NCBI GenBank assembly: GCA_963779925.1
Contig: CAVZZS010000010.1
Coordinates: 612 to 64,611, forward strand
Reading direction: 5' to 3'
Source of the DNA: an uncultured Nanoarchaeota archaeon
Lineage (GTDB): Archaea; Nanobdellota; Nanobdellia; Pacearchaeales; GW2011-AR1
Length of the DNA stretch: 64,000 bases
Numbering within the stretch: position 1 is the first letter of the stretch; every line of letters starts with the position of its first letter. Shown here piece by piece: positions 6,211-41,735 of the stretch. The position numbers and the translations under genes are program-made. Below the pieces are notes generated by a model. The model ran no database searches. It was not told the origin of the DNA and saw only the letters and a program-made list of their open reading frames with translations.

Positions 6211-6954
6211 TTATTTTGTCGCATATCCGCCAAGAATTGCAATATCATATGTGCCTAATGGAACCGGGGTTCCGCCCCCGCCTACTGCAGCGGATTCAGA
6301 AGAATAAAATCTCCAAGAGCCTCTAGCTTGAACAAAGAAATTATCCAGGAATTTTAATGTAACTGCTGCTCCCGCTTGAAAATCAGAACCGGCTGAAATA
6401 GGCAAATCAGCATTGCTGTTTCCAGAACCAGTCCATATGGTATCGCCTGCAAAGACTTCCAAATCTAATGGTCCTATTCTTGGAAGATGGTATGTTAAAT
6501 CTGCTGTAAAAAAATATTCTGGATTGTCTGCGGAAACTCCGGGATCTCCTTGAGTGTTGCCCGAGTATGTTTCATAAAAAGGCTGGTAAGCCTTGACATA
6601 ATTTGGTGATTCAGTCATAGCCCATGAAAATAAAACATCAGCTCCAAATCCGCTATCTCTATTTATGAATTCTGCATATATTTGAGGCATAGTGTCCAAT
6701 AAAGGCGTGTTACCAGGATCTGTTGTAGTAGCTCCCCAATCACTTGATGCAGGGGGGTTTCCAGCAACGCTGCCGGTTTCATAGCCTATACCCGCCCCGA
6801 ATCTGAATTCTATATTGGGTGCCGGACGAACATAATCTGGAAAGGTTTCTTTAGCCTGTTCAACCCAATCTTCTTGGGCAATCGCAGGAATTGCAACAGC
6901 AGCCGCTAATGTTCCTGCAACAATCAGAGGCGCTATTCTTCTTAATAAACCCAT
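6211..6954 (-). CDS. secreted protein with outer-membrane-like beta-barrel character
   Basis: Ala/Leu-rich Sec signal ending AIAQE. Repeated amphipathic alternating strands: IEFRFGAGIGYE, ADVLFSWAM, FFTADLTYHL, LDLEVFAG, AAVTLKF, FFVQARGSWRFY, YDIAILGGYAT. Visibly GC-richer. Confidence 0.55.
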   Translation of the reverse strand: MGLLRRIAPLIVAGTLAAAVAIPAIAQEDWVEQAKETFPDYVRPAPNIEFRFGAGIGYETGSVAGNPPASSDWGATTTDPGNTPLLDTMPQIYAEFINRDSGFGADVLFSWAMTESPNYVKAYQPFYETYSGNTQGDPGVSADNPEYFFTADLTYHLPRIGPLDLEVFAGDTIWTGSGNSNADLPISAGSDFQAGAAVTLKFLDNFFVQARGSWRFYSSESAAVGGGGTPVPLGTYDIAILGGYATK

Positions 6955-8251: not shown

Positions 8252-8703
8252 GTTATCCCCCTTATCCTAAGAAAAAACGAAGCGGAATGTGGATTATAGT
8301 TTTATTGGTTGTAGTAGGGGTTATTATTTATGCAAACAGCAAGGGGATTATAAATCTCGGCTCTCTGAATTTTGGAAATTTCAGCATGTCAGGAAACCAG
8401 AGTGGCACAGCATGCATACAGAAAGTTAATTCATGCGGCAGCATCATAAACCAGAAATATGGATCTAATGTGAATGTGTTAAACAGCACAATAGCGCAAA
8501 ATGCCAACGATGCAAATCAGTTTTTGGCAACATGGAAAAGTTCTTCAGAATCGGCAAGTATTGCAACTTACAATGTTTCTTCATATCCCATCACTTTGGT
8601 AGCAACGAGATTTGACAATACAGATGGGACAAAAACGCCTTATGTATTTATCTGCAAATCTGATGGAAATCTGGAAGAGAAAACAAATTCAGGTCTCTGC
8701 TGA
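8248..8703 (+). CDS. single-pass membrane protein with an extracellular domain
   Basis: Short basic N-terminus, one TM (WIIVLLVVVGVIIYA), and a Cys-containing ectodomain of about 110 aa. Confidence 0.5.
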   Translation: MSYPPYPKKKRSGMWIIVLLVVVGVIIYANSKGIINLGSLNFGNFSMSGNQSGTACIQKVNSCGSIINQKYGSNVNVLNSTIAQNANDANQFLATWKSSSESASIATYNVSSYPITLVATRFDNTDGTKTPYVFICKSDGNLEEKTNSGLC

Positions 8704-9537
8704 TTTTTTTGAGGTTAAGCCATTCGCAATTTTTATCTTACTCTCTATTTTGAATAATTTTTGCCGTATCCTTTCGCCTGTAATTCCGTATTCCTCGCCA
8801 AGGCTTTCATTAGTTCGGGGATAAGGAAAGCCGTTCAATCCATATTTTTTGTATAATATTTCTTTTTCTTCTGGCGTTAAATTCGCTTTTTTCAGGCTCT
8901 TTTGCAAAAATTGTTGATCATGTTCACTGTTCTCGCGTGTTTCCTGCTGCTGTTGAGGTCGATTATCAACTGCACGGGCTCCCCGTTCTTCTTCTCCATC
9001 ATCATAAGTAGAATCTATAGAGATAGGATCTGAAAATTGAAGAAGTTCTTCTACACTATCAACAGGCAAAGAAGAAATTTCTGCCAATTGCTCTATTGTT
9101 GGTTTTCTGCCATGTCTCTTCACATAATTTTCAGATTCTGAATTTAATCTGTCTGATTTTATTGCTTGATTAACCGGCAATTTAATAGTTCTGCTCTTAG
9201 ATATTATCGCATTTAGAATGGATTGTCTAATCCACCAGATTGCATATGCTCTAAAGTTTCGATTCTCTTTATTGGGATCATAGCGATCTATGCATTTCAT
9301 CAGTCCAATTCGGCCTTCCTGAATCAGATCTCCAAATTCCAGACTTCGCCTGTGTTTAAGATATCCCGTATAGTGTCCGGCAATAGCAGTTACTAAAGGG
9401 AGGTGAGTTTCAATTAATTTATCTTTAAGAGATTTATCTCTTGTATCTAGATATTCTCTGAATAATTCGTCAAAGTCCCAGCTATTATTCCACATATCCT
9501 TGCCATCTATATATCTTAAAAAAATATCTTTTGCCAT
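8689..9537 (-). CDS. bacterial-type sigma-70 family RNA polymerase sigma factor
   Basis: Region 2: DLIQEGRIGLMKCIDRYDP and FRAYAIWWIRQSILNAI. Region 3.0: SRTIKLPVNQ. Region 4: LTPEEKEILYKKYGL and SLGEEYGITGERIRQ. Confidence 0.85.
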   Translation of the reverse strand: MAKDIFLRYIDGKDMWNNSWDFDELFREYLDTRDKSLKDKLIETHLPLVTAIAGHYTGYLKHRRSLEFGDLIQEGRIGLMKCIDRYDPNKENRNFRAYAIWWIRQSILNAIISKSRTIKLPVNQAIKSDRLNSESENYVKRHGRKPTIEQLAEISSLPVDSVEELLQFSDPISIDSTYDDGEEERGARAVDNRPQQQQETRENSEHDQQFLQKSLKKANLTPEEKEILYKKYGLNGFPYPRTNESLGEEYGITGERIRQKLFKIESKIKIANGLTSKKSAET

Positions 9538-11024: not shown

Positions 11025-11786
11025 ATGAACCTTAAGGGGTTTTTTAAAATATTTCTAATGATTTCTCCATTAATTTTTTTAATTTTATACTTTTCCCTTA
11101 TTAATATTCATTCTTCCCAAAATAGCGATAATTCTTCCAAAAATGAATCACAAAATTTCACACTTGATAATTCTTATTTGACGCCTAATATAACTCAACC
11201 AAGTATTCAACAAACTCCAATCAAGTCTGCTGATCCAAGAGATAGCATGGATATTTGGTATTGGACATTACCAATTCATTATACTTTTTCAAAAGATAGC
11301 TCCTGTAGTGATGAAACAAAAATGCGAGTTCAAGATGCGATGAATATAATAAACAAGAATACAGATAATTATGTTTCTTTTCAAGAAGATTCTGATTTGA
11401 CTAATACAAGTGGGGATTATAAAGGAATTTATTTTTCTTGCATAGACCAATATAATGATACTCCAAGATCAGAAACTGAAGGAGATGCAAGTTTCTATTA
11501 TTACATTGGAACTAGAGAAATCTCTTCTGGTTCTATAGAATTATACAAACCAAATAGGGCTCAATACGAGTACTGCATGGGTTATCCTGATGTGGAAATA
11601 CATGAAATATTACATACAATGGGATTAGATCATATAACAGGTAGAGCAAGTATTATGAATTCAATTGCTCAAGAGGGATGTTTTAATTTAGACAAAGAGA
11701 TTTCAGATTGTTTAGAGTATATATATTCAAAAGGGCAACAAAATTATTCTTGCCAAGGAATTCCATTTCAGAGTGAAAGTCAATAA
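11025..11786 (+). CDS. secreted metzincin-type zinc metalloprotease
   Basis: Signal/TM N-terminus. HEILHTMGLDH matches HExxHxxGxxH, followed by SIMN (Met-turn). Confidence 0.8.
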   Translation: MNLKGFFKIFLMISPLIFLILYFSLINIHSSQNSDNSSKNESQNFTLDNSYLTPNITQPSIQQTPIKSADPRDSMDIWYWTLPIHYTFSKDSSCSDETKMRVQDAMNIINKNTDNYVSFQEDSDLTNTSGDYKGIYFSCIDQYNDTPRSETEGDASFYYYIGTREISSGSIELYKPNRAQYEYCMGYPDVEIHEILHTMGLDHITGRASIMNSIAQEGCFNLDKEISDCLEYIYSKGQQNYSCQGIPFQSESQ

Positions 11787-15728: not shown

Positions 15729-16343
15729 ATGGAAAAAAATAATTCTACCAAAGAAATAGAAGAAAAAATAATTGAAGTCGGGCTTAGAATAGCCAGAAGG
15801 GGAGAAGGCGCTTTGATCGTTCTCGGAAAAGCAAATTTCAAGCCTCTTGTCGAGCAGAAAGTTCCTCCGTTCAAAATCGTTGATAATCTGAAATTATTGG
15901 AATCCCTTGCATTGATTGATGGCGCTGTTATAATCAATCATGAAGGCATAATGGAGAATTATGGGGTCATGATTGAATCAAGAAAGACAATGCAGGGTTA
16001 TGGGACACGCCATAGTGCAGGATTGAATGCTTCTCTGATCAAAGGCACAACTGCTTTTGTAATCTCAGAAGAAGATAAAAAAATAAGAGTCTTCAAAGAG
16101 GGGAAGGTTGTGCTTCAGATAGATGCCCTTGAAAAAGGCATAGAAAAGAGGACCCCTGAAATCGGCGGGATTCTTGCAAGTATAGGTGCAGGGACAATCG
16201 GGACTCTCGGAGTTGGAATGCTCATTCCGAATATAGGATTGACTTTGATTCCAGGCGTGATAATATTCGGTTCGACATATTTTCTGCTCAAGAAATTAAA
16301 TGATGCAAACCAGAACAAGAAATTATGGTCCTGGTTCTTTTAA
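15729..16343 (+). CDS. DisA_N/DAC-domain protein (putative diadenylate cyclase) with a C-terminal membrane region
   Basis: GEGALIVLGK, LIDGAVIIN, GTRHSAGLNAS and AFVISEEDKKIRVFKEGK follow the DAC pattern (GALIV, DGA, RHR, SEE). The C-terminus has two hydrophobic segments. Confidence 0.6.
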   Translation: MEKNNSTKEIEEKIIEVGLRIARRGEGALIVLGKANFKPLVEQKVPPFKIVDNLKLLESLALIDGAVIINHEGIMENYGVMIESRKTMQGYGTRHSAGLNASLIKGTTAFVISEEDKKIRVFKEGKVVLQIDALEKGIEKRTPEIGGILASIGAGTIGTLGVGMLIPNIGLTLIPGVIIFGSTYFLLKKLNDANQNKKLWSWFF

Positions 16344-20526: not shown

Positions 20527-21165
20527 ATGACAACTAGGAGATTCGGACTTTTGGCTTTTCTTGGACTATTAGCTCTTTCTTCAACTTCTGAAGCGCAGGG
20601 AATTTATCTCAAAACCTCAGGCGGAGTATCTTTTGGTTCCGATAAGATTATAGAGAAGAATTATGGTACAATGCCCCTATTCAACATAGGAATTGGCATA
20701 GATGCAAAAAATGGATGGGCTGGCGAATTCGATTTTTTCCAAACCTCGAAACAAGGGCCGGTTATCAATTATTCAAGATTTAATGCTATTCCAAGAATGA
20801 TATTGCCATTTCCTGAAGATATAAGCAAAAGTTCAGAAATAGACGCATATAAAGTAGAATTGCGAGTGTCAAAATCTTTTGGTAAAAAAGGGGAACTTCA
20901 GTCATATGTGGGAATGGATTTATCCTATGAAATGGCTACCCAATCTGTAGCTGAAACTGTAAACGGAACGGCATCATCTTATTCATATGACATGAGCCTG
21001 TATGGTGCAGGAGTATTTGCAGGAGTAGTCATTCCAATTTCAAAGAATACTTCATTCTTTCTTGAAGGTCTTGCTGATGTTATACCTGTGCCTAATTCTC
21101 AAGTAAAAGATGCGACAGATTTTGGCGGAAATTCTGTTATTGTGGGAGTGGAATATTCTTTCTAA
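20527..21165 (+). CDS. outer-membrane-protein-like beta-barrel protein (OmpA/OmpW-size)
   Basis: Signal MTTRRFGLLAFLGLLALSSTSEAQG. First strand GIYLKTSGGVSFG. Alternating amphipathic strands throughout. C-terminal strand VIVGVEYSF ends in Phe. Confidence 0.65.
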   Translation: MTTRRFGLLAFLGLLALSSTSEAQGIYLKTSGGVSFGSDKIIEKNYGTMPLFNIGIGIDAKNGWAGEFDFFQTSKQGPVINYSRFNAIPRMILPFPEDISKSSEIDAYKVELRVSKSFGKKGELQSYVGMDLSYEMATQSVAETVNGTASSYSYDMSLYGAGVFAGVVIPISKNTSFFLEGLADVIPVPNSQVKDATDFGGNSVIVGVEYSF

Positions 21166-25668: not shown

Positions 25669-26715
25669 ATGGATTATAGAAGAGCCGAGATTTTAAGCGG
25701 AGGAGCAGGAAAAGGTTTCTGTTATACTGGATATATAAAAGCAAAAGAAGATTTGGGAATAACTGATAGCGATCTTGGAGAAAAAAGTTTAAAATTTGCG
25801 GCTTCAATTGGGTCATATTATGCAGCAGGTCTTTCTTTAGGTGTAAAGGCAGGCGAAATAGAGAGATTTACAGAAAATAATAAAAAATTAATGGGCAATC
25901 TGTTCAAGCCCAGGCTTGACAGGATTATGTCTGCATTGGCAGGCTTAGGAAATCTCGGTAATCCTCGTTCTATAGAAAACTGCAATGGCGATGATCCCGA
26001 TTCTCTTCCTGATACGGGGTTATGTGATATAAGAAATCTTGAAAGGATCGCAAGGGTATTTACTGGCGATAAAAAGCTAAAAGATGTGAAAGACTTGAAT
26101 ATTATAGTAACAGACAGGCAGACATTCAAGCCAATTGTGATGAATTATAAGACATTTCCAGATGTTTATGTCTATGAAGCAATCATGGCTAGTTCCGCTT
26201 TTCTTCCAGCTTTCTCTCCAGTAATTATAAAAAATGAAGGGTTAAAAACAATCGTAATGGATGGCGGATTATCAAATAATGTCCCGTTGGATTTGGCATT
26301 ATTAGAAGAATCAGTCAGAGAAATTGTTTGTGTTGATTTATCATATGCCTCGGCTGTTAGAAAGATTCCTGTAACTGGAAATTTTATCTGGGACTATTCT
26401 CTTGAATCATTTTCTGCAGGGGCTCAAAAAACTAGAGGAATATTCGAGGCTCAGAAATTAGATTACGATAAAATCGCAAAAGATAGGATAGTTGAAATGG
26501 AATGTAACGGCAAAAAACAAGTATTATATCTAACCCCAAACATTCATTATACTAGATCATTCAGATCTGATACCGATAATGTAAGAGAGTTATCTGAAAA
26601 AGGATATGAAGAATTCAGAGAAGCATTAAAGGAATTTGAAGAATATAAAAAAGGGAATAAGCCCGCCTTTGGAACATATTCTTGTAGTGACTCTGATTCT
26701 AAAGTTTCTATTTAG
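25669..26715 (+). CDS. patatin-like phospholipase
   Basis: GGAGKG oxyanion motif, AASIGS (GxSxG variant) and MDGGLSNNVPL (catalytic DGG). Confidence 0.7.
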   Translation: MDYRRAEILSGGAGKGFCYTGYIKAKEDLGITDSDLGEKSLKFAASIGSYYAAGLSLGVKAGEIERFTENNKKLMGNLFKPRLDRIMSALAGLGNLGNPRSIENCNGDDPDSLPDTGLCDIRNLERIARVFTGDKKLKDVKDLNIIVTDRQTFKPIVMNYKTFPDVYVYEAIMASSAFLPAFSPVIIKNEGLKTIVMDGGLSNNVPLDLALLEESVREIVCVDLSYASAVRKIPVTGNFIWDYSLESFSAGAQKTRGIFEAQKLDYDKIAKDRIVEMECNGKKQVLYLTPNIHYTRSFRSDTDNVRELSEKGYEEFREALKEFEEYKKGNKPAFGTYSCSDSDSKVSI

Positions 26716-28485: not shown

Positions 28486-29295
28486 ATGAAAGTCTTTTCT
28501 CATTCCAGATTAAGCACTTTTGAGCAGTGCAATCTAAAATACAAATTCAGGTACATAGACAATATTATCCCTGAAATTGAAAAAACGATTGAAGCGCATC
28601 TTGGGAGCATCGTGCACCAGACTTTGGAATGGCTTTATTCGGAAGTGAAGGAAAAAAGGATTCCAACAATTGATGATATGATTGTTTATTTTTCAAAAAG
28701 TTGGATGGAAGAAAATAAAGAAACTTTGATGCAGAATAATAATGATGAGCAGAAGTATTTCAATAAAGGAGTAAAATATTTGCTCGATTATTACAATAGA
28801 TACAAGCCTTTTGAGGACAATACAATTTATGTTGAAAAGGAAATTTCAATAGATTTGGATGAAAAAGGCGAATTCAAAATAAGGGGTTTCATTGATCGGC
28901 TTGCATATAATCTTGCTACAAAAGAATATGAAATTCATGATTACAAAACTTCCAATACAATGCCGCAGGGAGATAAAATCGAAAAGGACAGGCAGCTGGC
29001 GCTTTATTCCATCGCGATAAAAGAGATGTTTGGGCAAGATAAAGAGGTAAGATTAATCTGGCATTATCTTTTCTTCAACAAAAGGATAGAATCGAAGAGG
29101 ACTGATGAACAGCTTCTCCAATTAAAAAAAGATACACTTGAGCTAATAAGGATAATAGAATCAACGACAGAATTTTCTCCTAACAAATCGCATTTATGCA
29201 ATTGGTGCGCATACAAGCCTATCTGTCCTGCATGGAATAATGTAAAAGAATACATGCCAAAATTTGAGAAGCAGAAAAAGCTTGGGGATTTTTAA
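28486..29295 (+). CDS. PD-(D/E)xK nuclease of the RecB/Cas4 type with a four-Cys cluster
   Basis: N-terminal Cys (EQCNLKYKF), FIDRL, EIHDYKT, QLALY, and C-terminal CNWCAYKPIC. Confidence 0.75.
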   Translation: MKVFSHSRLSTFEQCNLKYKFRYIDNIIPEIEKTIEAHLGSIVHQTLEWLYSEVKEKRIPTIDDMIVYFSKSWMEENKETLMQNNNDEQKYFNKGVKYLLDYYNRYKPFEDNTIYVEKEISIDLDEKGEFKIRGFIDRLAYNLATKEYEIHDYKTSNTMPQGDKIEKDRQLALYSIAIKEMFGQDKEVRLIWHYLFFNKRIESKRTDEQLLQLKKDTLELIRIIESTTEFSPNKSHLCNWCAYKPICPAWNNVKEYMPKFEKQKKLGDF

Positions 29296-31839
29296 TTTGC
29301 AACTTCCAATCCAAGTTCATGGACCTTAACCAAATCAGTCACAGTATCGCCTTCTTGAAGCTTTACAATTCTTACGCCTTGTGTCGCTCTTCCCATTACC
29401 CTGATATTCTGCAAGGTAGTTCGTATCACCATTCCTTTTGCAGTGGTTATAATGATATTGTCATTTCCGTTGATGGAAACAGTCGTAACTACCTCTCCAG
29501 TTTTGTCGGAGATTTTCAAATTGATTACTCCTTTTCCGCCTCTTGCGGTTTTTCTGTAATCTTCAACATTTGTTCTTTTTCCGTATCCATTATGTGTTAT
29601 TGTCAAGACTTCCTTTGTCCTTAATATTTCCAAACTGACTACTTCATCATTCTTTTCCATCCTTATTCCGGTAACGCCATAGCTTGCTCTTCCCATTGAA
29701 CGGACATCATTGCTGTTGAACCTGATTGCCTGTCCTTTCTTTGTCGCAAGCAGCACTTCTTCTCCGGATTTGATGATTTGGGCATCAATAAGCACATCAG
29801 AATTATCCAATGGAAGATTAATCGCCCTTATTCCTGAAGCTCTTGGCTTTGAGAAGTTGGACAAGGACATTTTCTTTACAAATCCTTTTCTTGTTACCAA
29901 AAATAAAGAATCGTTAAAATCACTCATTGCGATGATGTTGGTAATTTTCTCGTCCTTGACTTCAATCAGATTAATGAGTGCTTTGCCTTTGCTGTACCTG
30001 TCTGCTTCGGGGATTTCGTATGCTTTCAGGAATAAAACTCTGCCATTCGATGTGAAGAACATCAGATAATCATGAGTGGAGCAGCTTATTATCTGTTTGA
30101 CAAAATCACCTGTAGCCAAATTATTGCCTATGACCCCTTTTCCGCCTCTTCTCTGTTCTTTGTAGGTTCCGATGTCAATTCTCTTGCAGTATCCTTTTTC
30201 TGTAACAGTCACTATAACTTCTTTTTTCTGGACAAGATCCTTTTCGGCAATTTCGCCGATTCTCTTGACAACCTGGGTTTTTCTATCATCGCCATATTTT
30301 TCTTTAAGAGATTTTACGTCCTTGACAATTATCTTAAGAACCTCTTTAATATCCCCAAGGATTTTTTCATATTCCACAATTTTCAATTTCAGGGTTTCAT
30401 GCTCTTCTTTCAACTTATCCTGTTCAAGCGCAGTTAACTGCCTTAATCTTGTTTCAAGAATTGCCTCTGCCTGTCTTTTCGTGAAATTGAATTTCTTGAT
30501 TAAATTTTCAGCGGCTTCTTCTCTGGATTTCTTGATTATGCTTATAATTTCATCCAGATTTTTCAAAGCGACCAAAAGCCCTTCGACAATTTCGAGCCTT
30601 TCTTTTGCTTTCTTTAAATCATAGGCTGTTCTTTTTGTTATAATCTGTTTTCTGTAATTTACAAATTCTTCAAGTATGTGCTTCAAATTCAGGACTCTTG
30701 GCTGCGTTCCGACCAAAGCCAGGAAATTTGCGTTAAAAGAATCCTGCAATCGCGTATATTTGTAAAGGCTATTGCTGATATATTTTGAATTAACTCCTTT
30801 TTTAAGTTCAATGACAATTCTTATTTTTCCCTTGGAAGATTCATCCCTTAAATCAGATACTCCGATTAATTTCTTGTTCTGTATGAGATTAGCAATCTGT
30901 TCTACTAGCGTGGATTTGTTTAGCATATAGGGAATTTCCGTAATGACAATTTTCTCCTTGCCCTTTGATTCTTCGGTTGTTATTTTCCCGCGCAAAATTA
31001 ATCTGCCTTTTCCTGTTCTGTATAAATCTACAATGTCGCCGGAAAGACTTCCTCCGGTCGGGAAATCAGGTCCTGTAACAATCTGGCATAATTCTTCAAT
31101 AGTGATATTTTCATTCTTTACATATTCAACAATTGCATCGCAAATTTCAGTAAGATTATGCGGAGGGATATTTGTGGCCATGCCGACCGCTATTCCAGAT
31201 GCGCCATTGATCATTAAATTAGGAAGTTTGGATGGAAGCAATTCAGGCTCTTTTAAGGAATTGTCAAAATTAGGAATAAATTTAACGGTCTCCTTGTCAA
31301 TATCCTCGATCATTTCATTTGAAATCTGAGCCATTTTTGCTTCGGTGTAACGCATTGCAGCAGCGCGGATCTCCGTCAATGCTTCCAAAGTTACCCTGGC
31401 CAAAAACCAGAGGATAACGCAATGAGAATTTCTGGGCCATTCTTACTAATGCATCATAAACAGCCACATCGCCATGAGGATGATATTTACCAAGAACATC
31501 TCCGACAATTCTTGCGCATTTTTTAGTCTGCTTGTTGGATTGCAGCCCAAGTAAATTCATAGAATATAAAATTCTTCGCTGAACGGGTTTCAATCCATCT
31601 TCGACTGATGGCAAAGCTCTTGCAACAATAACCGACATGGCATAATCAAGGTAGGACTTTTTGACTTCTTCAGAAATTTCAGTATTGATTATGTTTTTGC
31701 TTCCGGAAAGTTTGCCTTGGGAATCCTTTTCTTCTTCGCCTTCATCTTCTTCAACAGATTCTTCATCTTCAAGGCTTTCTTCTATTTCTTCCTGTTCTTC
31801 ATCAGGATTCTCTTCTGTAAAATCTTCATCGTCTGCCAT
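29292..31839 (-). CDS. gyrA: DNA gyrase subunit A, split into two overlapping ORFs by a +1 frame disruption
   Basis: 174 aa ORF (31315..31839): [15 protein letters not shown] ... [10 protein letters not shown]. 703 aa ORF (29292..31403): [15 protein letters not shown] onward, with six beta-pinwheel repeats. Skipping one nt within 31358..31368 gives [12 protein letters not shown]. Confidence 0.9.
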
Positions 31840-35450: not shown

Positions 35451-36557
35451 TTAAGGACTAGTAATATTTACGTAAAACTGAGCATATGCAGTATTGCCTG
35501 CATTATCGGTAGCTGAACAACTTACTTGGGTTGTTCCTATCGTAAAATTAAATCCTGAAATAGGATTGCATGTCACTGTATCTGTGCCGTCAACAATATC
35601 TGTTGCAGTCGGTAGGGTGTAAGTAATTGTAGCTCCAGATACAGAAGTATTCCCTTGTGCTATATTGGATGGAACATTTGATATTACAGGGGGAGTTGTA
35701 TCTTGAACGATTATGTTAAATGTAGAGGTTCCGGTAAGTCCCAAAGAATCTGTAGAAGAACAAGTTACTTTTGTTGATCCTAAGGGAAATAGCGACCCGG
35801 CAGTTGGACTACAAGTTACTATATCCGAACCATCAACATAGTCTGTTACAGCAGGTATTGCATAATTAACTGTATTCCCAGATGATGATGTAGCTTCCTG
35901 TTTTATATCTGAAGTAGAAGAAATTACGGGAGGAATTGTATCCTTAACTATTACATTAAATGTAATATGTGCTGTATTACTTGCATTATCCGTGGCTGTA
36001 CATCTTACTTGTGTTGTTCCTATTGAAAAAGTAGAGCCGGAAGGAGGATTACAGCTTACTGCATCAATGCTGCCATTGCTGTAGTCTACTGCAACCGGTG
36101 TGAATGTTACAACGGTTCCGATTGAACTTGTAGAATCCACTGTTTGACTAGACACTGGAGAGAATATAGGATCATTAACAGTTACTTCTTGACCGGCTGT
36201 TGCATTAAGTCCGGCAGCGTTTATAGCAGTCCATATAACTGTTGTTGTTCCTGTAGGAAAACCCCCGGCAGGGGCATTATTTGTGACAGTGGGAGAGATA
36301 CCTGAAGGATCAGTTGCATTTGGAGTGCCGAGAGAGGAAATTGTTGTCAATGTTCCTGTAGCATTTATTGTAATGTCTGGAGGTGGAAGTATGCTGGGAG
36401 GAAGTCCTGCTTTAGATAAACTCTGATTTATGATTGTTGAATTATTTGCAGTTTTCGAATTAGATGATACTGCTCTTGTTATAAAAAAAGCCAATAAACC
36501 CAAGACAATTAATATGCCGACTACAAAAACAATCCTAATTTTCCCTCTTTTAGCCAT
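35451..36557 (-). CDS. membrane-anchored surface protein with about four HYR (hyalin-repeat) domains
   Basis: N-terminal TM anchor. Repeated unit DT.PPVIS ... G..V.Y..P.ATD.VDG ... V.C.P..GS.F..G.T.V.C.ATD..GN. Confidence 0.75.
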   Translation of the reverse strand: MAKRGKIRIVFVVGILIVLGLLAFFITRAVSSNSKTANNSTIINQSLSKAGLPPSILPPPDITINATGTLTTISSLGTPNATDPSGISPTVTNNAPAGGFPTGTTTVIWTAINAAGLNATAGQEVTVNDPIFSPVSSQTVDSTSSIGTVVTFTPVAVDYSNGSIDAVSCNPPSGSTFSIGTTQVRCTATDNASNTAHITFNVIVKDTIPPVISSTSDIKQEATSSSGNTVNYAIPAVTDYVDGSDIVTCSPTAGSLFPLGSTKVTCSSTDSLGLTGTSTFNIIVQDTTPPVISNVPSNIAQGNTSVSGATITYTLPTATDIVDGTDTVTCNPISGFNFTIGTTQVSCSATDNAGNTAYAQFYVNITSP

Positions 36558-39534: not shown

Positions 39535-40007
39535 TTATCTAGCAGAAGGCGCTTTATATGGTCTTCCTAATGCCTGATAAATCTCTTTTTCAGTTTTTCC
39601 TGCAACTTTTCTCCCGTTGGACTTTCTGAACAGCCCGTGATTTGTCAGCTTGAAGCCCTGTTTTTCCGCAATGATCCTCAATCCGATGTTGGCGCCTTTT
39701 TTGCCTGAGTATGCCAGGAGCGTGCACCCCACTCTTCCGGGATTGTAAAGAATAGCTGAAGATCGATTTCATCAATTCTGAAAAACATCTCCTTGTCTCC
39801 GCCCTGCAGAAATTTTCCTTTCTTGCTTAATTTTTCTTTTATCTTTTCTTTGCTGTTTTCATTTTTTGCGATCAGGACAATATCGATATCTCTAGGATTT
39901 GGTTTTCCTCTTCTTATGCTGCCTGCAATTTCAATTCTTCTGCAAAAAGGCCTTAATTCTTGAACAACTTTTCTTGCAAGGCTGAGAACTCTTTCACCCC
40001 TATTCAT
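39535..40007 (-). pseudogene. minimal Pol-beta/PolX-like nucleotidyltransferase with a -1 frame break at a G4 run
   Basis: Upstream ORF: IEIAGSIRRGKPNPRDIDIVL ... IPEEWG. Downstream ORF: (G)CTLLAYSGKKGANIGLRIIAEKQGFKLTNHGLF ... EKEIYQALGRPYKAPSAR. The break is at CCCC 39727..39730 on the plus strand. Confidence 0.65.
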
Positions 40008-40038
40008 GGAAACTGAAAGCACAAGAAACTTATAAATT

Positions 40039-41685
40039 TTATCTGAATTTTGCCCAATCGTAAATCGGGCTTTCAACAGCAGTTCTTACAGAAGAAACCG
40101 AACTAGAGACTGTTCCGTCACCATAAATATAATCTCCGGGGAAAACAGAATCAACTGCCGCCTGGGCTGTTGGAGCATTCAAGATATAGTAATCTGCATA
40201 ATTCCTCAAATTAAATTTGCCTTGCTGTGTTTCAATAACAACCACGGCATGGGCGATGAAAGGCCCCCTTAATCCGACAGCATAAACATTTTTGTAGTTA
40301 AATGCTCTAGACTCGATATAAGGCGATAAATTTCCGTTTATATCCCTGCAAACGCCATAGCCATAAATTTCATATTCTTCTTGCGCTGAAAAAGTCCCGT
40401 CATGGTCTTTCTGTGATATGCAAGAAATTAATCTGGATAAATCCTGTTCCGAATGTATTTTTGAGATGGCCTCTTCTAATGTATCCCCAAATTGTGCATG
40501 AAGGGCGGCTAAATCAGGTGAATCGGGATAGTGAAGATAAGGGGGATTGGCGTTTACTGTGGAATTATGAAAATTATTTCTCAATCTGCTTTCCCTATTC
40601 ATGCTTGTATCTAATTGTGTCGAGTATTGAATTCCGAAAACATTGTTCTGTGAATTATAATAAAATTCAAGATTCCCGCCATTAAATTTCTCGCCTATTC
40701 CTGCAACGACGGTAAACTGGTCTGGTGCTAAAAAATCCATGAGCTCCGATGCTTTTCCTTTCAAATAAAAGCCATTCTTGAAAAGGGCAAATGCGCTAAC
40801 GTCAAATTGCAGTTCATTTCTGGTGGGCGCAATAAATTCATCTATGCTATAATTTGGTTTTGTAATCAGGCTTATATCGCATTCCAGACTGGCCTTTCTG
40901 CTTTCATCATGAAGACTTGCTCCAATCATGTTCGTTAAATTGAATGGCGAGGGATTATAGAACTGCCCGTCAAAAGTCCCCATATAGCTCAAATCAAAAT
41001 ATTTTGTTCCAAGCTCTAAACCGCCCTTGACATTGAGGTGATCAAAGGGATATGCCATGCTGCCAGAATCATATTCTGAAGTGCCGATTAAATTTATGAA
41101 ATCTTGAGTTTCCTGAGGATCAGCATAGTATTTGCTTCCTATAACAGAAAGCCAAGGGAAGAAGCTAAAGGATTTGAAATCAAATTTTTCTCCTAAATCA
41201 GCATTCCATCCTATTGCATAAAGTGTAAGGGGAGTTTCAAACTTTCCATAGCCAAGCGCAGAAAAGTCGACGCTCGTATTTGGCATATTAATTTTGGCGC
41301 CAGTCATGGAAAAATCAAGCCAGTCAAAAGGCCTTAAGCCCGCCTGCACTTTCATTATATCTGAGTCTTGAAGCAGGGTTTCAGTTGATAAATCCCCATA
41401 TGAAAATCCGGCATAAAAATTCTTGTTTCCAATAACTCCATCAGCATTATTTATTCTTGGAGAATCAGAATATTGCATATCAGAGGCAAAATCAAGTTCC
41501 CAGTCATTCCCTAAGGATAAACTTGAATCAAAGCTGAAGCTTTTATTGTCAATACTCCCTTTAAGATCAATTATCGAACTACTATCTTCTTTTATGATGG
41601 TGCTCTCTAGTGGATTCCCAAATAAAGCTCCTGCTGCCAAGCTCAAAGCCAATGCTATTGGTGCAACTTTCTTCATAATTTTCAT
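40039..41685 (-). CDS. secreted two-domain protein: beta-barrel-like N-terminal region plus a transglutaminase-like Cys/His C-terminal domain
   Basis: Signal MKIMKKVAPIALALSLAAGALFG. About 350 aa of alternating aromatic/polar strands. C-terminus YGYGVCRD ... FIAHAVVVIE ... NYADYY (Cys-His-Asp candidates). Confidence 0.5.
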   Translation of the reverse strand: MKIMKKVAPIALALSLAAGALFGNPLESTIIKEDSSSIIDLKGSIDNKSFSFDSSLSLGNDWELDFASDMQYSDSPRINNADGVIGNKNFYAGFSYGDLSTETLLQDSDIMKVQAGLRPFDWLDFSMTGAKINMPNTSVDFSALGYGKFETPLTLYAIGWNADLGEKFDFKSFSFFPWLSVIGSKYYADPQETQDFINLIGTSEYDSGSMAYPFDHLNVKGGLELGTKYFDLSYMGTFDGQFYNPSPFNLTNMIGASLHDESRKASLECDISLITKPNYSIDEFIAPTRNELQFDVSAFALFKNGFYLKGKASELMDFLAPDQFTVVAGIGEKFNGGNLEFYYNSQNNVFGIQYSTQLDTSMNRESRLRNNFHNSTVNANPPYLHYPDSPDLAALHAQFGDTLEEAISKIHSEQDLSRLISCISQKDHDGTFSAQEEYEIYGYGVCRDINGNLSPYIESRAFNYKNVYAVGLRGPFIAHAVVVIETQQGKFNLRNYADYYILNAPTAQAAVDSVFPGDYIYGDGTVSSSVSSVRTAVESPIYDWAKFR

Positions 41686-41735
41686 GAAAATCTCTGCACA
41701 GGATGTTTTTTAAAACTTGTTTTTATGATTATACC

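Follow-up and report, generated by a model that had tools for sequence, protein, structure and literature searches.

Transmembrane β-barrels of the outer-membrane protein (OMP) class are commonly seen as characteristic of diderm bacteria and of the organelles derived from them. Among cysteine proteases, CPR-C4 is a protease of Candidate Phyla Radiation bacteria and a remote homologue of vasohibin in the transglutaminase-like clan, which cleaves labelled casein using a triad of Cys61, His93 and the backbone carbonyl of Leu115 (PMC9108980). Some Woesearchaeota have been proposed to attach to, or prey on, bacteria, as their genomes encode lytic transglycosylases and TlyC-type toxins and are rich in genes of bacterial type (PMC8204110, PMC9723730), and whether DPANN archaea have bacterial hosts was explicitly left open by Castelle et al. 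2021 (PMC8204110). Here, a gene that appears to join an OMP-like barrel to a CPR-C4-like domain is described at positions 40039..41685 (minus strand) of a 64,000-nucleotide stretch from an uncultured Nanoarchaeota archaeon [GenBank assembly GCA_963779925.1, contig CAVZZS010000010.1, positions 612 to 64,611]. The whole of this stretch is referred to as the window.

The open reading frame (ORF) begins with ATG, ends with TAA and predicts an exported protein of 548 amino acids (aa) with two domains, a barrel and a cysteine protease-like domain. These limits and this length agree exactly with a preliminary description of the DNA made from the letters alone, to which the minus strand must be added. 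All peptides quoted there (the signal, the strand-like segments, GYGVCRD, FIAHAVVVIE and NYADYY) are present in the translation. The gene is real, conserved, archaeal and previously unannotated, and is not a chance ORF because it has homologues, conserved synteny in independent assemblies and distant relatives. The architecture, a barrel followed by a Cys-His papain-fold domain, is held to be very likely. The best explanation of the protein as a whole, which is favoured on balance, is a Sec-exported barrel with a tethered papain-fold cysteine hydrolase that would serve as an envelope protein of Woesearchaeota-type DPANN archaea.

Fifteen other full-length homologues, 536-575 aa in length and 49-62% identical, were recovered, giving a full-length family of 16 members. 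When 1.84 billion cluster representatives were searched exhaustively with a profile, 22 proteins were returned at E≤1e-3, some of which are only ~18-32% identical, and almost all of these 22 family representatives are from DPANN archaea. The second and third homology searches, which used broader alignments, added no new members. One match, a Candidatus Woesearchaeota metagenome-assembled genome, was found among 185,579 GTDB species representatives, and a metagenome scan gave four loci, all of them close. No paralogue was found in the window with phmmer or BLAST, and the family hidden Markov model (HMM) had no match in the unannotated ORFs adjoining the homologues.

The barrel region is homologous across P0017-P0025 (E 1e-34 to 1e-49) and in P0028 (6e-12 with a broader profile), and its homology is marginal in P0031 and P0033. 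Except for P0025, which at 359 aa stops at the end of the barrel, all of these proteins carry the same C-terminal domain. The 207-aa P0026 consists of the protease domain alone and may be a fragment. P0032 matches via the protease domain only and is encoded on a bacterial contig, where the enolase is 73-76% identical to enolases of Calditrichota, Ignavibacteria, KSB1 and Zixibacteria, and argC and recQ are adjacent. It has a signal peptide and a β-rich N-terminal region of ~330 aa. Homology of that region to the barrel was considered and could not be demonstrated (E ~1e-3 in a 10-sequence database, with fragmentary matches), so the whole fusion could be of bacterial origin, and transfer could have gone in either direction. 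A similar architecture is probably present in at least one diderm (FCB-group) bacterium, in which it would amount to a normal OMP whose enzyme domain is in the periplasm. Neither P0032 nor P0028 has a relative in the GTDB representative genomes.

The window is archaeal, with genes for S28e, L7Ae, Kae1, gyrase and a YchF-related GTPase within a few kb of the barrel-protease gene. Close orthologues occupy the same position in independent assemblies, divergent from the YchF-like GTPase gene and followed by genes for a small PolX-thumb protein, a PF1765-like protein, an ASCH protein, a metallopeptidase and Kae1, with L7Ae/S28e/L24e nearby. The downstream synteny is retained by P0018, an orthologue of 32% identity, and distant members adjoin further archaeal markers (a DTD2-type tRNA deacylase; RFC and Ack/Pta; NreA). 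One member lies on a 652-kb contig beside the gene for a 2568-aa β-helix surface protein. The family is absent from viral contigs in IMG/VR. Given the synteny beside archaeal core genes and the lack of viral relatives, the gene is inherited vertically within Woesearchaeota-type DPANN archaea and restricted to that lineage, and is not a contaminant or mobile element. A mis-binned bacterial gene was rejected on the archaeal ribosomal-protein and Kae1 genes less than 5 kb away in several independent assemblies. A viral or mobile origin was rejected on the lack of an IMG/VR match or a significant fold match in BFVD and on the stable chromosomal position.

In two divergent lineages, a gene for a secreted Gly-rich protein of ~390-410 aa, with a signal peptide, GNYGAG repeats and a CTY[DN]W motif, is located directly upstream of the barrel-protease gene (L001 8786-9946, plus strand; L008 479-1711, plus strand). 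The two copies are 64% identical, and the gene is absent from the window.

Residues 39-355 (40621..41571, minus strand) are predicted to form an OMP- or porin-like antiparallel β-barrel of 18 strands, as judged from the DSSP map of an AlphaFold2 model, from Foldseek and from analyses of dyad pattern, loops and conservation. The full-protein model, built on the 16-sequence alignment, has a predicted local distance difference test score (pLDDT) of 75.6 and a predicted template modelling score (pTM) of 0.68. It consists of a low-confidence N-terminal helix, 18 long strands, a linker and a compact C-terminal domain. The strands, each of 7-17 residues, are arranged as consecutive next-neighbour hairpins. 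All 50 matches listed in a Foldseek comparison with the PDB are membrane β-barrels, nearly all of them bacterial OMPs (best E 2.4e-5, probability ~1.0). They include the Campylobacter major outer membrane protein (MOMP) and OccD/OccK (OprD), both 18-stranded, as well as OmpG, OmpU/OmpT, Omp32, LptD, BamA and TonB-dependent receptors. The preliminary description had proposed a barrel of 14-18 strands, and the predicted strand number and fold matches bear this out. Neither a soluble solenoid nor a propeller, the folds named there as the contrary outcome, was obtained with AlphaFold2 or Foldseek.

The strands have one face, outward in the model, that is 73% hydrophobic and 5% charged, while the other is 26% hydrophobic and 24% charged. 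Compared with 2000 within-strand shuffles, this dyad pattern gave z=6.5 for hydrophobicity and z=3.5 for charge, so the alternation noticed earlier in the strand-like segments is far beyond chance. The odd-numbered connections between strands (3, 3, 10, 18, 25, 7, 12, 2 and 4 aa) absorb most of the insertions and deletions in the family, whereas the even-numbered connections (2, 3, 2, 8, 3, 5, 4 and 2 aa) are nearly invariant in length. One long connection holds two short helices. The dyad hydrophobicity and the alternation of long loops with short turns fit a transmembrane barrel. Its lumen is predicted to be polar and acidic and its exterior hydrophobic, and the polar, lumen face is better conserved than the hydrophobic, lipid face. 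Only K112, G116, H216 and K309 are ≥90% conserved among strand residues in the broad family, and all four are on the polar face, which points to a functional lumen.

Several findings weigh against this assignment. The scores for superposition on real OMPs are modest (TMt 0.38-0.45, root-mean-square deviation >8 Å), closure of the barrel rests on a predicted model, and the alignment of 16 sequences used by AlphaFold2 is shallow. The aromatic girdle is weak, at 0.26-0.27 at strand ends and 0.19 mid-strand. The last strand (…F-G351-I-Q-Y354-S-T) matches the bacterial β-signal partly: the G and Y/F are conserved, but Thr replaces the final aromatic residue and the strand is internal, not terminal. 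Full-protein searches of Pfam and NCBIfam at E≤10 found no sequence link to OMP families, and sequence searches of the PDB with the full protein were equally unproductive. Likewise, the exhaustive profile search reached no recognisable OMP family, and the relatives that were scanned have no OMP Pfam domain; the matches from outside the family were only low-scoring repeat proteins.

With so shallow an alignment, pLDDT values of 56-75 in several strands and an organism that has no known outer membrane, the barrel could be an artefact of AlphaFold2. The region would then be a soluble or oligomeric β structure with an adhesive, substrate-binding or lipid-shuttling role, and the protein a secreted cysteine protease; dyad hydrophobicity occurs in β-sandwiches too. 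However, 18 consecutive next-neighbour hairpins of 7-17-residue strands, a hydrophobic face almost free of charge (5%), a strict alternation of loops and turns with insertions and deletions confined to one side, and leading fold matches that are all membrane barrels (probability ~1.0) make such a soluble structure quite improbable. That residues 39-355 form a membrane-embedded barrel is considered probable.

The C-terminal domain, residues 390-548 (40042..40518, minus strand), is predicted by AlphaFold2 and Foldseek to be a cysteine protease-like domain with a papain fold of the CPR-C4/vasohibin-like type. When residues 385-548 were modelled alone on 23 sequences, the pLDDT was 89.4 and the pTM 0.80. 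The top five Foldseek matches of the domain are CPR-C4 chains (7OB6, 7OB7 and 7PJO; probability 1.00, TMq 0.55-0.56, E 4e-3 to 1.7e-2), and the similarity is at the level of fold only. Weaker matches are mostly to other papain-fold proteins, namely USP deubiquitinases, a Josephin-type clippase, the foot-and-mouth disease virus leader protease (Lpro) and NTAQ1.

The putative active site includes the motif G-Y-G-V-C446-R-D-I-N-G-N (40330..40362, minus strand), identified from conservation and DSSP assignments, in which the Cys446 codon is at 40348-40350. Cys446 is the first residue of a helix (446-461) that is followed by a four-stranded antiparallel sheet (466-473, 478-485, 491-495 and 498-504). 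His479 (40249..40251, minus strand), the putative general base on the same grounds, is the second residue of strand 478-485 and is 33 residues past Cys446. Both residues are invariant in 23/23 sequences, down to 18% full-length identity. Only four columns of the domain are invariant among the 23 sequences, the other two being G451 and A510, and G442 is found in 22/23.

The third residue of the triad is most likely Asn495 (40201..40203, minus strand), the best candidate on conservation. This position is N in 10, D in 8, E in 2, Q in 1 and S in 2 of the 23 sequences, and lies 16 residues past His479 at the end of the next antiparallel strand. That spacing is the same as between His159 and Asn175 of papain. 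N503 in the LNAPT motif (N16/D5/K1/G1, thus N/D in 21/23) or a backbone carbonyl, the element used by vasohibin and CPR-C4, may serve instead. The preliminary description had pictured a Cys-His-Asp triad on a transglutaminase/papain-like fold; the fold, the Cys and the His hold up, but the Asp of NYADYY, D498, is Asp in just 7/23 relatives.

The CPR-C4 assignment also has points that count against it. The fold match is moderate (E 4e-3, 11-14% identity), and CPR-C4 completes its triad with the main-chain carbonyl of a Leu and not with a side chain, which makes the geometry at the third position uncertain here. No peptidase or transglutaminase HMM (Transglut_core, Vasohibin, C39, C70 or NLPC_P60) matched in Pfam or NCBIfam at E≤10, so the HMM check proposed at the outset, for these domains and for OMP families alike, came back empty. 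The 23 domain sequences gave scattered noise matches only against HMM families, and a profile of the domain found nothing usable among PDB sequences, with one chance match to DotU (E=0.33). Given the lack of an HMM match, clan membership is assigned by fold and active-site geometry only. On the model, the domain appears to belong to the CPR-C4/vasohibin branch of the transglutaminase-like/papain-fold cysteine protease clan.

Other chemistries can be envisaged for this fold, as the domain could be a transglutaminase, an amidase or deamidase like NTAQ1, a deubiquitinase-like isopeptidase or an NlpC/P60-like cell-wall amidase. The motifs GVCRD, H-A-V-V-V-I-E and N/D-A-P-T are taken to resemble the Transglut_core consensus (G-x-C-x-D-F-A … H-A-W-x-E … D-P-T), which is treated as a lead only. 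The weak fold matches include NTAQ1, deubiquitinases and a phage 'transglutaminase', and some Woesearchaeota are thought to attack peptidoglycan (PMC8204110). A non-peptidase is nevertheless judged unlikely, as neither Transglut_core, NLPC_P60 nor any other HMM matched at E≤10 and the sole strong structural neighbour is a protease active on casein (PMC9108980). Hydrolase function is held with moderate confidence. Peptidase chemistry is mildly favoured, by analogy with CPR-C4, because that enzyme has been characterised biochemically.

Export is predicted from a Sec-type signal peptide read from the sequence at residues 1-23 (41617..41685, minus strand), with the n-region MKIMKK and the h-region VAPIALALSLAAGALF. 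The signal sequence reported earlier, MKIMKKVAPIALALSLAAGALFG, was confirmed in the protein, and AlphaFold2 places a helix of low pLDDT at residues 8-21 within it. Distant orthologues have classical AxA-type cleavage sites (such as LHA/QE, LSA/EE and VQA/EE). In the close-family alignment, a motif L[FL]GNPLE[ST]T extends across the predicted cleavage site (41599..41625, minus strand); G23, N24, P25, L26 and T29 are invariant in the 16 close (Woesearchaeota) members, and the motif is absent in the distant relatives. Such a motif may be peculiar to the lineage and act in processing or sorting, or as a plug.

A TATA-like box, TTTTAAAAAA, is located at 41706..41715 (minus strand), ~25 nucleotides upstream of the ATG, and no Shine-Dalgarno sequence precedes the ATG. 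Together these suggest an archaeal promoter and a leaderless or near-leaderless mRNA. A scan for sigma-70 promoters and intrinsic terminators gave counts not above those in shuffles. As the downstream gene has its own TATA-like element, the barrel-protease gene is probably monocistronic. That downstream gene, which is PolX-thumb-like, was called mechanically at 39678-40076 (minus strand) from a TTG that overlaps the 3′-end of the barrel-protease gene. Its likely true start is an ATG near 40008 (MNRGERVLS…), preceded by a TTTATAA element, so the two genes probably do not overlap.

Between the last barrel strand and the protease domain is a linker of ~34 residues (356-389; 40519..40620, minus strand), with pLDDT <50 for residues 365-389. 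In the model, the N-terminus and the C-terminal domain emerge on the same side of the barrel, which follows from the even number of strands (18) and is the side of the short turns. The protein would be exported by Sec via its signal peptide, after which the barrel, at ~39-355, would anchor the enzyme in a lipid bilayer, either on the surface of the cell or where two cells meet. The barrel may also serve as a channel or solute conduit, given its conserved polar lumen. The flexible linker would tether the protease domain on the cis, short-turn face in an OmpA-like topology. There, with Cys446 as nucleophile, His479 as base and most likely Asn495 as orienting residue, the enzyme might cleave peptide or isopeptide/amide bonds of envelope or partner proteins beside the membrane.

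The same order of domains would also suit an inverse autotransporter, in which the protease would pass through the lumen of the barrel to which it is joined and reach the loop side, for display or release. The disordered linker is long enough to span the barrel, and the lumen-facing K112, H216 and K309 could contact a linker threaded through it. However, type Ve barrels have 12 strands instead of 18, searches of Pfam and NCBIfam to E≤10 found no inverse autotransporter barrel, LysM or Ig-like domain, and the top 50 structural matches include neither intimin nor invasin. This arrangement is regarded as highly improbable.

A barrel with a protease tethered on its short-turn face still requires a membrane, and which one it occupies is a matter of speculation: the outer membrane of a diderm bacterial partner, an undescribed archaeal outer layer or the archaeon's own membrane. 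DPANN archaea are not known to have an outer membrane or an Omp85/BamA-type assembly machinery. This counts against the proposal, as the residence of a barrel with a hydrophobic surface is then unexplained, and no Omp85/BamA-like gene is among the scanned ORFs of the 64-kb window. The genomic context is a further point against, as it offers no functional partner. That Woesearchaeota-type DPANN archaea possess genuine OMP-type barrels, whether for an unrecognised outer membrane or for planting a channel and protease in a diderm partner, is entertained as a doubtful possibility; two small barrel-like ORFs in the window are perhaps further examples of such archaeal barrels.

The resemblance of the barrel to bacterial OMPs allows a more specific version of the favoured explanation, not exclusive of it, in which the protein is delivered to a diderm bacterial partner and inserts into its outer membrane. 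There the barrel would let nutrients or peptides through or would be an anchor, with the protease at work in the space between the cells. P0032 of the diderm FCB group shares the protease domain, compatible with a bacterial origin of that module at least, bacterial hosts or prey have been proposed for some Woesearchaeota (PMC8204110, PMC9723730), and the window also encodes a patatin-like phospholipase and other secreted proteins. However, no host is known, insertion of an OMP normally depends on the β-barrel assembly machinery (BAM) working from the periplasm, no homology between the barrel and bacterial P0032 could be demonstrated, and none of the loci examined is linked to lytic transglycosylase or toxin genes. 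Insertion into a host is considered unlikely.

The core-like, vertically inherited and syntenic nature of the gene would suit a resident barrel, in a Woesearchaeota lineage with an outer lipid layer or other unusual envelope. The protease would then face a space resembling a periplasm, in the manner of the C-terminal domain in OmpA. The soluble domain is on the turn side, equivalent to the periplasmic one, and at least two other signal-peptide ORFs in the window are OMP-like, one of them ending GVEYSF and with a weak Opacity-porin match. Against this, no diderm Woesearchaeota have been reported, the 64-kb window has no visible Omp85/BamA-like gene, and the two small ORFs have neither significant family matches nor a close relative in the 185,579 representative genomes. 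A self-envelope role is thus given little credence.

The first of these two ORFs (20527-21165, plus strand; 212 aa) has a bacterial-style signal peptide, MTTRRFGLLAFLGLLALSSTSEAQG, and an OMP-like composition, and ends …VGVEYSF*, a canonical OMP β-signal (G-x-x-aromatic-x-Phe). Its Pfam Opacity-porin match is below threshold (E=0.011), and it has no NCBIfam match and no close relative among the GTDB representatives. The 548-aa protein had been numbered the third outer-membrane-like protein of the DNA, and the 212-aa ORF is probably the first or second of that series. It is not homologous to the 548-aa protein; nor are the other OMP-like ORFs of the window, so the numbering reflects similar appearance only and not paralogy. 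The second (6211-6954, minus strand; 247 aa) has a signal peptide, MGLLRRIAPLIVAGTLAAAVAIPAIAQE, is rich in Gly, Ser, Thr and aromatic residues, has no Pfam or NCBIfam match, and is a candidate small barrel or envelope protein.

Other genes in the window predict a membrane-anchored surface protein with four HYR repeats (35451-36557, minus strand; Pfam E=4.6e-39), a membrane-anchored matrixin-like (M10) metallopeptidase (11025-11786, plus strand; E=1.9e-5) and a patatin-like phospholipase (25669-26715, plus strand; Pfam E=9e-20). The first two are predicted to be surface proteins, and the last could attack membranes or scavenge lipids, since the organism is likely to rely on a partner. A sigma-70 family protein of bacterial type, with regions 2, 3 and 4, is encoded at 8689-9537 (minus strand) on this archaeal contig, and sigma-70 genes are prevalent in Woesearchaeota (PMC8204110). 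A protein with a DisA-type diadenylate cyclase (DAC) domain, a bacterial-type synthase of cyclic di-AMP, is encoded at 15729-16343 (plus strand). GyrA, which has an acidic N-terminal extension, appears to be split (29292-31839, minus strand): an N-terminal ORF of 174 aa (31315-31839) overlaps the 703-aa remainder (29292-31403) by ~90 nucleotides in another frame. This could be due to a frameshift, a sequencing error or programmed frameshifting.

It is the organism more than the folds that is surprising. A conserved, syntenic family of OMP class in DPANN archaea, which are presumed to be monoderm, would challenge the view of such barrels as a diderm hallmark or else indicate that the membrane of a bacterial partner is the target. 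If DPANN archaea do have OMP-type barrels, this would be the first OMP-class barrel system in Archaea and direct molecular evidence of an interaction between DPANN archaea and bacteria. The protein is concrete and expressible, and so offers a means of testing the question of bacterial hosts. The C-terminal domain would extend the CPR-C4/vasohibin-like protease fold to archaea and to a membrane-tethered form, which may hint at the physiological role of this protease class in ultra-small symbionts. The family lacks a Pfam or NCBIfam model and could be defined as a new one.

Both modules are of known fold classes, but by sequence they fall into no described family. In literature searches, no account emerged of a fusion between a porin-like barrel and a protease of CPR-C4/vasohibin-like type, or of conserved OMP-class barrels in DPANN archaea or Woesearchaeota; the nearest report is a passing remark on a possible PopA relative in Altiarchaeales (PMC12228718). 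MOMP (5LDT/5LDV) and OccD/OccK (3SY9, 2QTK), the top Foldseek matches, likewise have a signal peptide followed by an up-down meander of 18 long strands, with a hydrophobic outer face and a polar lumen, and their long loops and short turns are on opposite sides. The 548-aa protein differs from them in that there is no sequence homology (Pfam and NCBIfam, E≤10), the TM-scores are modest, and the protein comes from an archaeon, in which neither an outer membrane nor BAM is known. It also lacks a terminal aromatic β-signal, because a further domain follows the barrel.

Inverse autotransporters of type Ve (intimin/invasin) likewise begin with a signal peptide and an N-terminal barrel, after which come a linker and a functional domain at the C-terminus, but their passengers are Ig-like/lectin adhesins and there is no sequence or fold match to them. 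OmpA has the same order of barrel then soluble domain, and in the topology proposed here the soluble domain is on the same side as the N-terminus and short turns. However, the barrel of OmpA has 8 strands and its OmpA_C domain, for which Pfam gave no match in the 548-aa protein, is non-catalytic and binds peptidoglycan, in contrast to 18 strands and a Cys-His hydrolase domain here.

Of the structures matched by the C-terminal domain, CPR-C4 ranks first and is the only strong one. The profile search of the PDB detected no sequence similarity between them, and when aligned by structure they are 11-14% identical. CPR-C4 is described as a homodimer of ~221-aa chains with a Zn site formed by Asp residues, and the paper that reports it describes no barrel domain and makes no mention of 'signal peptide', 'transmembrane' or 'secreted' (PMC9108980). 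Its third catalytic element, the Leu carbonyl, is 22 residues past the His, whereas the candidate N495 is 16 past. Nonetheless, in both proteins a helix starts with the Cys and the sheet that follows carries the His, with a Cys-His spacing of 32 residues in CPR-C4 and 33 here, and both are from ultra-small, presumably symbiotic prokaryotes.

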